A stretch of DNA of 64,000 nt from Parcubacteria group bacterium (GCA_016203945.1 JACQLT010000002.1:73585-137584), one strand, 5' to 3'. Shown: positions 52,613-58,693, counted from the stretch's first letter. Notes: generated by a model not told the origin, from the sequence alone. Numbers and translations are program-made.

Positions 52613-52627
52613 CCCCTCTATTCACAT

Positions 52628-52700
52628 CCTTGGTTCGGCCAAGTTATCCACACCTTGGCCGAACCAAGGATTTCCAAGGATTTTTGCCAAGGATTTTTGG
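52628..52700. repeat. second copy of hairpin/DnaA-box element plus CCAAGGATTT(TTG) tandem repeat x3
   Basis: CCTTGGTTCGGCCAAGTTATCCACACCTTGGCCGAACCAAGG then ATTTCCAAGGATTTTTGCCAAGGATTTTTGG; between convergent rpsR and the inactive HtrA-like gene. Confidence 0.5.
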
Positions 52701-53420
52701 TTAGAGACCCAAGAAGTTGCGCAAGAACAAAGCCGGAATCACCGTGACGCTTCCTGAAGAACTGATCGCGGCAATGCCTGCCACGCGGCCTTCCACCGTG
52801 AAGACCGCGGCTCCAGTCGAAGCCGCCGTCTCTGTTATCGTGCTCTGAATCAGATCTCCCGCGACAGAACGCACCACTCCTTCATTCACGATTATTCCTG
52901 CGGTACTTTGCGCTATCAACACAAGTTTCATCCCGGGATTTAACTCTCCTTCATTAACGAACCCGGCCGTGGGCAGATTGTTCTTTTCCACCTTCAGGAG
53001 AACAAGATTGCTTGCCGCATCACGCTTCAACACCTGAGCGGGAATGGTCTCCTGGTTTTGATCAAGCGACACCGAAACTCCAAAACCAGGGGGCGTCAAT
53101 GAAGCCCGGGTCAAGATCAAGCCGTCTGAAGTTACGATAAGCCCGGAACCCTTTCTCCCAGCTCCGCTCTGCACCAATACCACGGTCTTGCCAGACTTTT
53201 CTACGGTCTTCTCTAGGGCTGCTGGCTCCTCAACAGAAATCTGAGAAACAGGCTGTACAAGAACCGTGCGCGCGTTCCAGTCCTGGATGAACTTCAAGTC
53301 CTGGAATGCGGGCGAAGACGCGAGATATGGCAACAGGAACGCCTGCGCCCAAATTCCTCCCGCAGCCCCCAGAACAAACATAGAGACAATCAAAAAGATG
53401 CGTTGTATCATGCAATTCAC
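52701..53420 (-). CDS. HtrA-like protease-fold protein with all three catalytic residues substituted (predicted inactive), no PDZ
   Basis: Aligns to htrA at 56159-57493: [19 protein letters not shown] (His to Ser), NLVLLKVE (Asp to Asn), [10 protein letters not shown] (Ser to Thr in GNSGGP position); N-terminal TM/signal. Confidence 0.55.
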
Positions 53421-56122
53421 GCAACAACAGCCCGAGTTGTCTTTTTCTTTTGAGGAGAAACGATATGGCCCAATCCCTGGAATACGATCTCTCCGTCCTT
53501 CTCGTCCAGAATTACCCGTACTCCGGCGGGAATCTCTCCTGCGACGATTTTCAAAGACAAGGGGTCTAGCACGAGCCGCTGGATCACTCGGCGCAGGGGC
53601 CGGGCGCCAAGATTCGGGTCAAAGCCCTTTTGAGCGAGCAGGGTTTTTGCTTTTTCGGTCGCCTCCAGCTCAATATTCTGGGCAGCTAAGCGCTCCGCAA
53701 CCTTCGCAAGCTCAAGCTCCACGATGCGCGTGATTTCTCCTTTTGCCAGGTAGTTAAAGATGATAATTTCGTCAATACGGTTCAAGAACTCCGGACGAAA
53801 CTCCTCTTTCAGGGCAGCCATCACCTTTTCTCGCACATTTGATTTTGCTTCCTCGCCCTGCTCTCCCAGGAAACCCAACGGAGCCATGAGCGCTATGTGC
53901 GAAGAGCCGACGTTGGACGTCATGATGATGATGGCGTTCTTGAACGAAGCCACCCTTCCCTTGGCGTCGGTAAGCCGGCCGTCTTCCAGGATCTGCAGAA
54001 GAATGTTGAATACTTCGGGATGCGCCTTTTCCACCTCGTCCAACAGGATGACGCTGTACGGACGCCGGCGGATCTTCTCGGTCAGCTGGCCCCCTTCTTC
54101 ATATCCGACATATCCCGGAGGAGAGCCGATCATGCGAGAAACGGCATGGCGCTCCATATACTCTGACATGTCCAAGCGGATCATGGCATTCTCGTCATTA
54201 AACAGAAACTCGGCCAGGGCTTTTGCGGTTTCCGTCTTGCCGACTCCAGTGGGACCAAGAAAGAGAAACGAGCCCAAGGGCCTGTTCTCCTCAGAAAGAC
54301 CCGCTCTGCTCCTTCTGATGGCAGCAGATATGGCTCCCAGCGCCTCGTCCTGCCCCACCACGCGGCGACGCAGTGCGTCTTCAATCTTCTCTAACTTCTT
54401 TGCCTCTTCTTCCAGGAGACGCATGACGGGGATTCCCGTCCACCTTGCTACCACTTTTGCCATGTCTTCTTCCGTCACCTCTTCTTTGACAATCGGACGG
54501 TTCTTTTGGAATCTCAGAAGCCGACGCTCTTCTGACCGAAGCCTCTTGAGAAGGTCTGGGATGAGGGAATATTTCACTTCGGCTACCTTTTGCAGATTGC
54601 CTGCCGTCTGCTCTCGCTCAGCTTCAAACCGAAGCTGATCCAATTTCGCTTTTAATTCTTTGATGCTGTTCACCACTTCCTTTTCCGTAGACCACTTTGC
54701 TTCAATTCCCTTTGCCTTCTCTCTCAGATCGGCTAACTGCCGGATGATGCCTTTTGTTTTGTTTGTCTTCCCTTTTTCTGAGGCGAGCGCCTCTTGCTCA
54801 ATTTCAAGCTTTTGAATTTCGCGCTTGAGCTGATCCAACTCAACCGGCTCTGACTCCATGTCCAGCCGCAGGGCTGACATGGCTTCGTCCATGAGATCAA
54901 TCGCTTTGTCGGGCAGGAAGCGATCTGCAATATACCTGGCGGCAAGGTTTGCCGCTGCCACCAAGGCGGCATCCCTCACCTTAACGCCGTGGTGCAGCTC
55001 ATATTTTTCTTTGATGCCCCGCAGAATGGACACGGCGTCTTCAATAGAAGGTTCTGCCACGTAGATGGGCTGGAAGCGGCGCTCTAAGGCCGCGTCTCGC
55101 TCAATGTACTTCTGGTATTCCTTAAGCGTGGTGGCTCCAATAGCCCTGAGATCTCCCCGCGCCAACGCGGGCTTGAGAAGGTTGGAAGCGTCAATCGCGC
55201 CTTCAGCAGCTCCCGCTCCCACGAGTGTATGCAGCTCATCAATAAACAGCAGGTACTTGCCGGCAGCCCGATCCAGCTCCTTGAGCAGGGCCTTGATGCG
55301 ATCTTCAAACTCTCCGCGGTACTTGGTGCCAGCGATCAACGATCCCAAATCAAGCGCAATAATCTCTTTGTCTTTCAGGGATTCGGGCACTTCTCCCTTC
55401 ATGATTTTTTGAGCTAAGCCTTCTGCAACCGCGGTCTTCCCAACGCCAGCCTCCCCGATGAGAACGGGGTTGTTTTTCGTGCGCCGGGAAAGCACCTGCA
55501 TGAGCCTCCTGATTTCCTGCTCCCTGCCGATTACCGGGTCAAGCTTGCCGAGCTCGGCCAAGCGCGTCAGATTTTTCGTATATCGTTCAATGACCTGGTA
55601 CTTGGATTCCGGAGTGGGATCCGTAATCCGAACTCCTCCCCGGATCTCTGCCAATACTTTGAGCACGGTGTCGTAATCAAGCTTGCCGACTTCCAGCATG
55701 GCGGCATCCTTTCCCCCCTGCACAATGTGCGTACGCTCCAGCACTTCCTTGGCCTGGGTTTGGGCATCAACCAGAGCAAGCAACAGATGTTCTACCGAAA
55801 CGTATTCATCGCCCATCTTCCCGGCTTCTGTCCTGGCTCTCTCCAGCACGCGCGCCAAGTCTTGCGTCAGATAGAACTGGCCGAATACGGCAGGGCTGGT
55901 GCTTTTCGGAAGGCGTTCTAACGCGTTCGCCGTCTTTTTCTTCAAGTCTTCCACGTCTGCCCCAATCTTGGCCAAGACGGTCTGCACCACCGATCCCTCC
56001 TGCGAAAGCAACGCCAAAAGCAGATGGAGTGCATCCACCTGTTGCTGGCCTTTTTCCTGGGCCATCTGCTGGGCCTGCATGATGGCCTCTTGCGCCTTGT
56101 TTGTAAAGTTTCCGCCAGTCAT
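53417..56122 (-). CDS. clpB: ATP-dependent chaperone ClpB
   Basis: Clp_N repeats, two AAA+ modules (GEAGVGKTA; GPTGVGKTE), long coiled-coil middle domain. Confidence 0.95.
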
Positions 56123-56158
56123 GATTCTTTTATATCATAAAACCCTTAATAATCAAGC

Positions 56159-57493
56159 CTACTGCGTGCGGGAACCGAGCTCCACGTTTATAGTTTTTTC
56201 TTGAGAACCAGAGAATATGGTAAGGGTTACGAAATCTCCCGGATCGTATTTCTGGATGATAGTGCCCAACGAGTTGTCCTGCGTAATCCGCTCTCCGTTC
56301 AGTCGCAAAATGACATCTCCTGCCCTGAGTCCTGCCTTGGCTGCGGGAGATCCGGGTTCAATCGCAGCCTCTCCGCTCTCACCCCTCACCACGAGGGCGC
56401 CGTAGTCCACCGTCAGATTCCGGTCTTTCTGCACGGCCGATGTGACCCCAACATATCTGACGCCCAAAAATGCATAGGTGATTTCGCCTCCTTTGCGCAC
56501 CTGATCAATAGAACGCCTCACCTTGTTTATGGGAATCGCAAATCCGATGCTCTGAGCTCCCGAAACAGTCGCGGTGTCCATGCCGATCACTTGGCCCGCA
56601 AGATTGAGAAGCGGCCCTCCGGAGTTTCCCTGGTTGATTGCGGCATCCGTCTGAATGACATCTTCAATTGTTTCTACGAAAGTTCCTCCGGTCGCTGTGA
56701 TGGTGCGGCCGAGCCCGGACACCACGCCCGTAGACACCGTGTTGCGGAACTCTCCAAGCGCGTTGCCAATAGCAATGACCGTCTGGCCTATTTGCAGGGC
56801 GTCAGAGTCCCCGAGATTCGCCACCGGGAAACCTCCGTTGGGATTTTCTATCTTCAGAATGGCAAGATCCTGTACGGGGTCCCGCGCGAGCACCTTGGCA
56901 GGATATGACTTGCCGTCGTTCGTAAAGACGGTGTATTCTGCTTTCTCGTCAAGCACCACATGCTTATTCGTCACCACTAGGCCGTCGGCCGCAACGATGA
57001 ATCCGGATCCCCCGCCCACCTCTTTCTTTTCCGTGCCGCGTTGCCGGTACTGGGGGACTTCAACCTTGAAGGGCGATCCTTCTCCGAACGGATTGACAAA
57101 GTATTGTTCCACAATGGGAACATCCTTTGTGATTACGATAGACACCACGGCTGGAGAAACGCTCTCCACGGCTCCGATGATCTTTTCTTCCTGGGTCGTC
57201 TGGGGGACATACGAGGTTTCAAACCCCGGAGAAAACGTGCTCTGAAGATCTATTAATTCGCGCGAGAATAGTCCGCCTCCTTTGGCGTAGTACGACCCTG
57301 CCAATCCTCCAAAGAATCCTGCCACGACAGCTCCCACGAATATGCCTGCCACGAACAAAGCCGCCTTCTCTTGAAAGAAGGAAGGCATTTTTATATGAAG
57401 CCGCGGCATCCGGAACTTGCCCCGTATAAATGCAAGCATTCTTCGGGGCTTGCGCGGCAGCTGCGGAAACGAAGGAAGATCGTAAAGGCTCAT
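56159..57493 (-). CDS. htrA: HtrA/DegP-family serine protease with PDZ domain, membrane anchored
   Basis: Catalytic H (TNKHVV), D (DLAILKI), S (GNSGGPLLN), PDZ C-terminus; start may be an internal Met. Confidence 0.8.
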   Translation of the reverse strand: MSLYDLPSFPQLPRKPRRMLAFIRGKFRMPRLHIKMPSFFQEKAALFVAGIFVGAVVAGFFGGLAGSYYAKGGGLFSRELIDLQSTFSPGFETSYVPQTTQEEKIIGAVESVSPAVVSIVITKDVPIVEQYFVNPFGEGSPFKVEVPQYRQRGTEKKEVGGGSGFIVAADGLVVTNKHVVLDEKAEYTVFTNDGKSYPAKVLARDPVQDLAILKIENPNGGFPVANLGDSDALQIGQTVIAIGNALGEFRNTVSTGVVSGLGRTITATGGTFVETIEDVIQTDAAINQGNSGGPLLNLAGQVIGMDTATVSGAQSIGFAIPINKVRRSIDQVRKGGEITYAFLGVRYVGVTSAVQKDRNLTVDYGALVVRGESGEAAIEPGSPAAKAGLRAGDVILRLNGERITQDNSLGTIIQKYDPGDFVTLTIFSGSQEKTINVELGSRTQ

Positions 57494-57505
57494 AGAGTAC
57501 CGCTA

Positions 57506-58693
57506 TTATACGACCCGCTTGCGGAGCTGGTCAACTAAAGGAGGGAGCGTCTTTAAGACCCGCACGATATCCTCTTTTGTTGTGCGCCTACCAAGGGTGA
57601 TGCGCAACGAGCCCAGGGCTTCTTTGGGAGACATGCCGAGCGCCAACAATACGTGTGAGGGCTCCTGAGAACGCTCAGAACACGCGGATCCCGTAGAAAC
57701 CGCAACGCCCTTCTGGTCAAGCAGCATGACTAAATCCCTCCCCTCTATTCTGGCAAACGTGAAGTGCGCGTTATTTGGAAGGCGCCTTGCCATGGAACCC
57801 GTGCAGGCGCTCTCTGGAATCTGCTTTAACACGCTCTTGATGAGTTGATCCCGCATGTGGCGGATGCGCACTGCTTCCACCTGAACCTTGGGGCTCTGGA
57901 GATCGGCCAGCGCTTTTCCCATACCAACGATCGCCGCCACATTTTCCGTACCGGAGCGCAGTCCCCCCTCCTGGGACCCTCCCTCCAGCAGAGGATCTAC
58001 TGCCACCCCTTTGCGCACGAACAACAGCCCTGCGCCCTTGGGCCCGTAGATCTTATGCGAACTCAGCGTACACAGATCTATGTGAAGCTGTTCAACGCTG
58101 CAATCCAGAAAATTTGCGGCTTGCGCCGCATCCGTGTGGAATACGACTGACGATTTTTTTTTCTCTCTGATCATGCGCCCGATTTCAGCTATCGGCTGCA
58201 CGGTGCCGATCTCGCTGTTCGCGTACTGCACGGAAACCAACACGGTATTCTCTTTGATTGCTTTCCCAACGTCTTCTGCATGCACTATCCCATCCTTGCC
58301 AGCTGGTATATATGTAGCCTCTATAATCCCTTCTTTCTCCAATTTCTGAATTGGCGCCAACACCGACTCGTGCTCTATTGCCGAAGTAATCACGTGCGGC
58401 TTGACCGTTTGCTCGCCCTGAGCCGCGTCGAAAGGTCGAACCACTCCCCGAATGGCGAGATTGTTCGCTTCTGTGGCTCCTGAGGTAAAGACGACTTCAT
58501 CTGCTGCGCAATGCAGGAAGGACGAGGCCTGCAATCGAGCCCGCTCAAGCGCCGAGGTAGCTCTCTGCCCCATGTGATGGAGAGAAGAAGGATTGCCGTA
58601 TTCCTGCTTCAGATACGGCATCATTACGACGAGCACGCCGGGATCCACCGGGGTTGACGCGGCATAGTCGAGATAGAGTGTTTTCTTTCTCAT
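57506..58693 (-). CDS. cysteine desulfurase (NifS/IscS family)
   Basis: LYLDYAASTPVDP N-terminus, PLP lysine loop SSHKIYGPKGAGLLFVR. Confidence 0.85.
   Translation of the reverse strand: MRKKTLYLDYAASTPVDPGVLVVMMPYLKQEYGNPSSLHHMGQRATSALERARLQASSFLHCAADEVVFTSGATEANNLAIRGVVRPFDAAQGEQTVKPHVITSAIEHESVLAPIQKLEKEGIIEATYIPAGKDGIVHAEDVGKAIKENTVLVSVQYANSEIGTVQPIAEIGRMIREKKKSSVVFHTDAAQAANFLDCSVEQLHIDLCTLSSHKIYGPKGAGLLFVRKGVAVDPLLEGGSQEGGLRSGTENVAAIVGMGKALADLQSPKVQVEAVRIRHMRDQLIKSVLKQIPESACTGSMARRLPNNAHFTFARIEGRDLVMLLDQKGVAVSTGSACSERSQEPSHVLLALGMSPKEALGSLRITLGRRTTKEDIVRVLKTLPPLVDQLRKRVV

Follow-up and report, generated by a model that had tools for sequence, protein, structure and literature searches.

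The 64,000-nucleotide stretch of Parcubacteria group bacterium DNA analysed here (GCA_016203945.1, JACQLT010000002.1:73585-137584; hereafter the window) encodes on its minus strand, in this order, the protease HtrA, a ClpB-type AAA+ disaggregase and a short HtrA paralog, referred to below as pseudo-HtrA. Sequence and structure comparisons show pseudo-HtrA to be a proteolytically dead, PDZ-less and loop-trimmed HtrA core, predicted to be carried on a single N-terminal membrane helix. Judged from its conservation, the protein is functional and under strong purifying selection, not decaying, and the database searches show it to represent a large family that is, by its confident matches, restricted to Patescibacteria. 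We lean towards reading it as a non-catalytic factor in envelope quality control that binds peptides or modulates HtrA and is co-produced with its neighbours in a quality-control operon.

The pseudo-HtrA protein and its family

The original prediction, drawn from the sequence alone, held that the short protein is a paralog of the protease domain of the upstream HtrA, that the catalytic His, Asp and Ser are replaced by Ser, Asn and Thr, and that the PDZ domain is missing. All three open reading frames (ORFs) lie where it had placed them, and its description of the protein stood in each of these respects. BLASTP aligned residues 84-227 of pseudo-HtrA with residues 151-316 of the upstream HtrA at 25% identity (E=7e-10). 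Pseudo-HtrA matched the Pfam model Trypsin_2 at 2.2e-12, above the curated cut-off, and the upstream HtrA matched the same model at 3.7e-35, together with PDZ. A profile of 64 family sequences searched against the PDB retrieved human HTRA1 at 1.3e-24, with bacterial DegP, DegQ and HtrA ranking below it. The AlphaFold2 model of pseudo-HtrA (mean predicted local distance difference test score 85.1) was superposed by Foldseek on the protease domains of HtrA1, HtrA3, DegS and Helicobacter pylori HtrA with target template modelling scores of 0.78-0.85, and its Foldseek E-values against HtrA1, DegS and RsgI9 were about 1e-13. By all four approaches, the similarity far exceeds chance.

The window HtrA keeps the complete triad (His178, Asp209 and Ser291) and has a single PDZ domain, whose carboxylate-binding loop reads FLGV. 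The three replacements in pseudo-HtrA (Table 1) were recovered in both pairwise and multiple alignments, and no intact triad lies elsewhere in the sequence, the whole protein containing not a single histidine. Pfam returned no PDZ match at E≤1 and no domain other than Trypsin_2, and the C-terminus lies 3 residues past the last helix of the protease domain. Alignment with the window HtrA opens gaps of ~39 and ~16 columns where two long HtrA insertions are absent; from the general topology of HtrA proteases, we take these to be the regulatory loops LA and L3. Among the features of S1C-family HtrA proteases, pseudo-HtrA thus has the chymotrypsin-like two-barrel domain and, by prediction only, the extracytoplasmic location; it lacks the triad, any PDZ domain and both regulatory loops.

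A word-indexed search recovered 116 relatives, nearly all 217-250 residues long, from Parcubacteria and other Patescibacteria assemblies; in databases they are called 'serine protease' or 'trypsin-like peptidase domain-containing protein' and nothing more specific. When 1.84 billion cluster representatives were scanned exhaustively with HMMER, 234 clusters (50% identity) scored E≤1e-10. All confident members belong to Patescibacteria, and matches from Bacillota and Deltaproteobacteria proved to be ordinary HtrAs. In the literature searched on proteases and chaperones of Patescibacteria (the candidate phyla radiation), we found no description of this family. Many of the loci that bear the gene module (L009, L011, L012 and other records with CAZ and CAY accession prefixes) come from assemblies titled 'uncultured Candidatus Saccharibacteria'; the L009 protein is 79% identical to the window protein, labelled Parcubacteria by NCBI. 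Taxonomy at the level of individual records looks unreliable.

Loss of the triad extends across the family, as assessed in an alignment of 247 members together with a fragment of the window HtrA (248 sequences). The column of the catalytic His holds S (88), D (55), E (48), N (13), T (11), A (7), K (5) and R (4), and His is not among these eight commonest residues, which cover 231 of the 247 members. At the Asp column, N predominates (176 members, 71%), followed by G (34) and D (25). The Ser column is unconstrained (S 32, T 31, D 27, A 25, Q 25, N 22, K 21 and E 20), and 136 of the 248 aligned sequences contain no histidine at all. What the family does conserve is the structural skeleton of HtrA (GSG, DG, LLK and several glycines) and a set of its own, comprising E-N, L-V-P, L-K-R-D, T-N-I and, after the lost serine, G-(S/A)-P-L-F. 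The membrane-helix residues Gly15, Gly18, Gly19 and Pro28 are each conserved in at least 90% of members. The C-terminus is fixed as well: 217 of 241 full-length members (90%) share one terminal column, and F-x-G-(L/F/M/I) forms the last four residues in ~77%.

In favour of a protease or other hydrolase working with non-canonical catalytic residues, the fold is kept, as is G-(S/A)-P-L-F in the L1 loop, 147 of 247 members have a serine at position +2 relative to the canonical one, and databases use the label 'serine protease'. The window protein, however, has Ala at this +2 position and no histidine, no NCBIfam model reaches its cut-off for it, and no polar residue is invariant beyond those structural in all HtrAs (GSG, DG and the K of LLK). 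We consider such an enzyme highly improbable; alternative catalytic residues were rejected as candidates, there being no invariant nucleophile or base beyond the HtrA structural residues.

That triad, PDZ domain and regulatory loops are all gone is what a decaying htrA duplicate, a pseudogene or an annotation artefact would display. This explanation is refuted by the selection estimates and by conservation. The ratio of non-synonymous to synonymous substitution rates (dN/dS) of pseudo-HtrA against an 84%-identical ortholog is 0.11 (0.11-0.15 overall), comparable to that of the active htrA (0.10), with clpB at 0.05, and it is this ratio that marks the gene as functional and constrained. Moreover, the reading frame is intact and both ends are conserved in about 250 divergent homologs, the C-terminal end is fixed, and synteny is held down to 31% identity.

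Linkage to clpB and the atypical ClpB neighbour

A locus scan covering one genome per GTDB species, with a query built from an eight-sequence alignment, returned 56 loci (numbered here with the prefix L). In all 50 Patescibacteria loci with both boundaries readable (within L001-L058), the distance from the clpB stop to the pseudo-HtrA start ranges from -28 to +94 nucleotides; L024 and L054 have no upstream sequence, and the gene is disrupted in L044. Overlaps of 1, 4, 8, 11 and 28 nucleotides occur among the loci. The synteny is kept in relatives at 31-50% identity, and four distant homologs (36-49% identity) all lie directly after clpB on their contigs.

Of 40 testable loci, 37 have a same-strand HtrA gene within 2.6 kb upstream of clpB, sometimes with one gene inserted. 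Regular expressions for the His, Asp and Ser motifs detected all three in 32 of these 37 HtrAs; the remaining five (L019, L025, L030, L046 and partial hits) miss at least one, in part at contig ends. The HtrA at L019:1794-2918 fails the GNSGG expression and that at L046:1274-2581 fails D-[LIV]-A; both could be motif variants or further degenerate HtrAs. For the proposed operon of htrA, clpB and the dead paralog, the same-strand string, the final position of the paralog and the conservation of the arrangement were borne out, but htrA is not an invariant member.

In the window, the junction between clpB and pseudo-HtrA reads ...GTT GCG TGA ATT GCA TGA... Starting at GTG 53420 would add 3 codons and produce a GTGA overlap with the clpB stop, whereas ATG 53411 leaves a 5-nucleotide gap. 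The ATG is more likely the true start, because the NCBI call (P0001) has 236 residues, the 84%-identical ortholog in L008 has no in-frame start upstream of its own ATG, and the family consensus opens with M-x-K/R. The ATGA overlap described originally is not present: the sequence offers the GTGA overlap or, more likely, the gap. True 4-nucleotide overlaps with clpB are seen, for example, in the orthologous loci L005, L010, L015, L026, L037 and L057.

The linkage is shared by a second type of module, in which clpB is followed by a gene for a DUF5656-like polytopic membrane protein and then by a membrane-anchored, PDZ-bearing pseudo-HtrA (Table 1). The DUF5656-like gene lies upstream of the sister pseudo-HtrA, and in L059 and L064 it follows clpB. 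The sister proteins (the weaker matches P0115 and P0116 together with L059:5854-7131) have 386-425 residues and share with the PDZ-less family the N-terminal helix and an F-P-Y-L-A-S-S motif; their triad is degenerate and the PDZ domain is retained. Since clpB accompanies this variant as well, the association of clpB with a dead HtrA is older than the loss of the PDZ domain.

The ClpB of the window is itself unusual. It has an N-domain, two AAA+ modules and a long coiled-coil M-domain, and its best PDB match is Thermus thermophilus ClpB (2.8e-269). The M-domain is full length, aligning end to end with residues 380-543 of Mycobacterium tuberculosis ClpB, whereas ClpC matches only the first 54-87 residues. 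In the D2 module, however, the LGF tripeptide lies in a loop of ClpC length that can be aligned gap-free with the ClpP-docking GLGF segment of M. tuberculosis ClpC1, where T. thermophilus ClpB has a 7-residue deletion. The tripeptide (L/M/V/I)GF is present in every Patescibacteria locus in which the region is readable (L001-L061) and absent from the Deltaproteobacteria ClpB in L062. Against the ClpB model TIGR03346, the window protein scores 1186.6, just under the cut-off of 1232.1. ClpB groups have been described as uniformly lacking LGF loops, a trait that discriminates ClpB from ClpC (PMC10149685). The window ClpB does not share this defining absence of an (L/I/V)-G-(F/L) loop, and so contradicts the textbook rule that ClpB has no ClpP-docking loop. 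A tblastn search of the window and the fetched loci, with Escherichia coli ClpP as query, found no ClpP.

Topology, proposed function and transcription unit

AlphaFold2 predicts a single helix over residues 2-32 of pseudo-HtrA, and about 3 residues precede the membrane segment. Across 241 members, the mean net charge is +2.6 in the N-terminal flank and 0.0 over the 15 residues after the helix, the N-flank being the more positive in 94% of them, and the PDZ-bearing relatives have long N-tails rich in lysine and arginine (K/R-rich). On the strength of these flank charges and N-tails, pseudo-HtrA is predicted to be N-in, C-out, with its dead core on the outer side of the membrane, as is the neighbouring HtrA. 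The reverse, cytoplasmic orientation of the domain, which would allow contact with ClpB, was considered and is disfavoured by the same flank charges. ClpB is a cytoplasmic protein without an export signal. Direct contact between the two is therefore unlikely, and with the dead domain predicted outside, co-expression does not imply a physical partnership.

The low dN/dS (~0.1) and the constant clpB linkage together point to an important role, independent of catalysis, in proteostasis of the envelope or membrane. In the reading that we favour, though only by a modest degree of confidence, pseudo-HtrA is a peptide-binding or HtrA-modulating quality-control factor. The three genes would be co-transcribed from a promoter before htrA, and the operon would serve protein quality control on both membrane sides of monoderm cells, the ClpB-type AAA+ protein acting in the cytoplasm and HtrA with its dead paralog on the membrane's outer side. 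The paralog would keep a peptide-binding scaffold without cutting, as the conservation of G-(S/A)-P-L-F after the lost serine suggests, and would most likely use its retained cleft to bind exported or membrane polypeptides that are unfolded. Protease-dead DegP keeps its chaperone function and provides a model for such a holdase role. In addition, the paralog may modulate the active HtrA by mixing into its oligomer or, alternatively, by presenting the conserved hydrophobic F-x-G-L/F C-terminus as a conceivable ligand for the PDZ domain of the neighbouring HtrA, in which the FLGV loop is preserved. Modulation of this kind would parallel the way in which MamO promotes proteolysis by MamE. In a compact genome, the tight coupling to clpB would then serve to co-regulate the genes and to make their products in stoichiometric amounts, rather than reflect physical contact.

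Several observations weigh against this proposal. The invariant partner is clpB (50/50) and not htrA (37/40), which often but not always completes the trio: in L006, L032 and L040, at least 3 kb of upstream sequence contained no htrA. The LA/L3-type loops and the PDZ domain, which mediate HtrA allostery, are absent from pseudo-HtrA. Its membrane helix is unusually conserved, hinting at a specific intramembrane partner that the proposal leaves unnamed. Stress regulation of the operon is an assumption: searches returned no CIRCE operator with up to 3 mismatches, and a single HAIR operator match with up to 2 mismatches, inside clpB and at chance level.

The predominance of clpB over htrA also bears on a narrower explanation, namely that pseudo-HtrA serves the active HtrA alone as an allosteric partner, switching proteolysis on or off after the manner of MamO and MamE and having no holdase role. 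It would do so by co-assembling with the membrane-anchored HtrA or by docking its F-x-G-L/F tail into the PDZ domain of that protein. The precedent of MamO, the same-strand htrA close upstream in most testable loci, the hydrophobic C-terminus at a fixed position in 90% of members and the intact carboxylate-binding loop of the HtrA PDZ domain all speak for it. It is nevertheless fitted less well by a linkage to htrA that is weaker than that to clpB. Where htrA is not adjacent, in three loci, pseudo-HtrA ends in the same C-terminal motif, a comparison that does not discriminate; identity to HtrA is only 25%, and the N-terminal aromatic residues that form the HtrA1 trimer appear to be unmatched. 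We regard this explanation as unlikely.

The clpB linkage, invariant, often translationally coupled and present in both variants, speaks for a further reading, in which pseudo-HtrA would be the outside-facing receptor of a trans-membrane extraction system: the dead HtrA would capture misfolded proteins of the membrane or exported ones, and the LGF-bearing ClpB would pull them inward, possibly to ClpP. The unusually conserved helix would contact a membrane partner; in the PDZ-bearing variant this would be the polytopic DUF5656-like protein, whose gene separates clpB from pseudo-HtrA in L059 and L064. The conserved ClpP-type docking loop of ClpB would find a use. Such a system would be analogous to the Derlin pseudo-protease and the Cdc48 AAA+ protein in endoplasmic-reticulum-associated degradation (ERAD). 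The case for it, however, is built purely from gene neighbourhood, and compact Patescibacteria genomes routinely overlap unrelated genes. Only ~3 residues of the PDZ-less form would face the cytoplasm, the operon of that form includes no channel-like partner, and no ClpP turned up in the window or the loci. The receptor role is accordingly rated very unlikely, and a shade more doubtful is the complete two-compartment, ERAD-like machine, in which pseudo-HtrA, accompanied in the sister variant by the DUF5656-like protein, would recognise damaged outer-face proteins, LGF-ClpB would extract them and ClpP would destroy them inside.

The co-production on which the favoured quality-control reading depends is compatible with the layout of the locus (Table 1). 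The genes from ftsZ to pseudo-HtrA form an unbroken minus-strand string that ends against a convergent plus-strand rpsF-ssb-rpsR cluster. At the level of consensus matching, htrA, clpB and pseudo-HtrA appear to be laid out as one transcription unit, because a promoter-like site precedes htrA and a hairpin follows the last gene. The former lies inside the 3' end of the nifS-like gene, and its -10 box ends 11 nucleotides before the htrA ATG. The hairpin likely marks the end of the unit: the folding energy of the surrounding 94 nucleotides is -41 kcal/mol (z=-6.1; none of 200 shuffles folds as well), and it has no T-tract and is not a classical intrinsic terminator.

Table 1. Features of the window around pseudo-HtrA, and loci of the PDZ-bearing sister variant
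Feature	Position	Strand	Basis
ftsZ	61870-60908	-	ORF listing, Pfam/NCBIfam
comEC	60911-59430	-	ORF listing, Pfam/NCBIfam
Glycosyltransferase family 2 (GT2) gene	59466-58690	-	ORF listing, Pfam/NCBIfam
NifS/IscS-type cysteine desulfurase (nifS-like)	58693-57506	-	ORF listing, Pfam/NCBIfam
Promoter-like site TTGACC-18-TATAAT, 11/12 consensus matches	57505..57534	-	Consensus match only
Active htrA, 444 residues	57493-56159	-	ORF listing, Pfam/NCBIfam
Active HtrA protein: K/R-rich N-tail, membrane helix from ~residue 45	56159..57493	-	
clpB (ClpB-type AAA+ disaggregase), 901 residues	56122-53417	-	Pfam, NCBIfam, PDB match
Leu749-Gly750-Phe751 in the ClpB D2 module, ClpC-type ClpP-docking loop	53870..53878	-	Alignment
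Pseudo-HtrA, longest ORF, 239 residues	53420-52701	-	ORF listing
Pseudo-HtrA gene, 236 residues from ATG 53411; stop codon 52701-52703	52704..53411	-	ORF, NCBI call, Trypsin_2
N-terminal membrane helix, ~residues 4-28, with Gly15, Gly18, Gly19 and Pro28	53328..53402	-	AlphaFold2, conservation, charge
HtrA-type two-barrel protease core, residues 62-236, without LA and L3 loops or PDZ	52704..53228	-	Alignment, AlphaFold2, Foldseek
Ser104, at catalytic His position (HtrA His178)	53100..53102	-	Pairwise and multiple alignments
Asn135, at catalytic Asp position (HtrA Asp209)	53007..53009	-	Pairwise and multiple alignments
Thr199, at catalytic Ser position (HtrA Ser291)	52815..52817	-	Pairwise and multiple alignments
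Conserved C-terminal end F-L-G-L-COOH	52704..52715	-	Family pattern F-hydrophobic-G-(L/F)
Perfect 18-bp hairpin separating pseudo-HtrA from the convergent rpsR gene	52626..52671	-	Folding energy
Sister-variant loci	L059:2403-7131; L064:26-2277; L065:420-2374		

Further details of the locus concern its non-coding segments and the wider neighbourhood. The 36-nucleotide spacer between htrA and clpB (56123-56158, minus strand) contains TTGATT-16-TATAAA, ending 6 nucleotides ahead of the clpB ATG, and promoter-like boxes so close to the htrA and clpB start codons suggest very short or absent leaders. Right after the pseudo-HtrA stop, at 52626-52700, three direct copies of AATCCTTGG occur, the third running into the 18-bp hairpin (TCCTTGGTTCGGCCAAG...CTTGGCCGAACCAAGGA); the whole could represent either a small repeat element or a terminator that works in both directions. 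The block of GT2 glycosyltransferase, in some cases the nifS-like gene, htrA, clpB and pseudo-HtrA recurs in many Patescibacteria loci (L008-L058), and in L003 comEC lies further upstream, as it does in the window.

Comparison with known systems

Few bacterial pseudo-proteases with an HtrA scaffold are known, the special cases being MamO in magnetosomes and the sensor domain of RsgI9. A minimal HtrA pseudo-protease as a core conserved gene across the ultra-small, genome-reduced Patescibacteria, which discard nearly all that is dispensable, adds a further setting. The labels 'serine protease' and 'trypsin-like peptidase' currently attached to the family mislead metabolic and proteolytic inventories of these organisms.

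MamO, likewise a dead HtrA paralog, works without catalysis and promotes the proteolysis that depends on MamE (PMC4794232). Pseudo-HtrA resembles it in having a degenerate active site on an HtrA/trypsin fold and in being encoded together with an active HtrA paralog, and the NCBIfam MamO model gives it a weak match (E=1.3e-5; 23.7 bits against a cut-off of 800). MamO differs in its length of ~650 residues, its fused transporter-like domain, its surface di-His motif for metal binding, its magnetosome context and its lack of linkage to clpB, whereas pseudo-HtrA has 236 residues, no histidine, no transporter domain and no magnetosome context. RsgI9 of Clostridium thermocellum (PDB 7sjy), an anti-sigma factor, carries a membrane-tethered, extracytoplasmic S1C-like domain that is protease-like but non-proteolytic and binds cellulose; this domain occupies ranks 4 and 5 in the Foldseek search (E about 3e-13) and is matched by the family profile at 2.8e-14. 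Its cytoplasmic anti-sigma-I domain, NTF2 domain and signalling by regulated proteolysis set RsgI9 apart from pseudo-HtrA, which has ~3 cytoplasmic residues and no other domain, so that only the S1C-like fold is common to both. By analogy, pseudo-HtrA would work most like MamO, yet it belongs to neither the MamO nor the RsgI9 group.

With HtrA, DegP, DegQ and DegS, pseudo-HtrA shares the protease-domain fold, the predicted extracytoplasmic location and one such protease encoded nearby; catalytic loss is natural and family-wide here, whereas in protease-dead DegP it was engineered. The neighbouring ClpB may be a natural disaggregase-protease hybrid resembling BAP. In BAP, an engineered ClpB carrying the ClpP-binding loop of ClpA (PDB 5ofo), the same combination of M-domain and docking loop is artificial, whereas in the window ClpB, a putative ClpP binder, it is natural and conserved in the clade. 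Collectively, it is the minimal architecture, the restriction to Patescibacteria and the invariant coupling to an LGF-bearing ClpB that distinguish pseudo-HtrA from these known systems.

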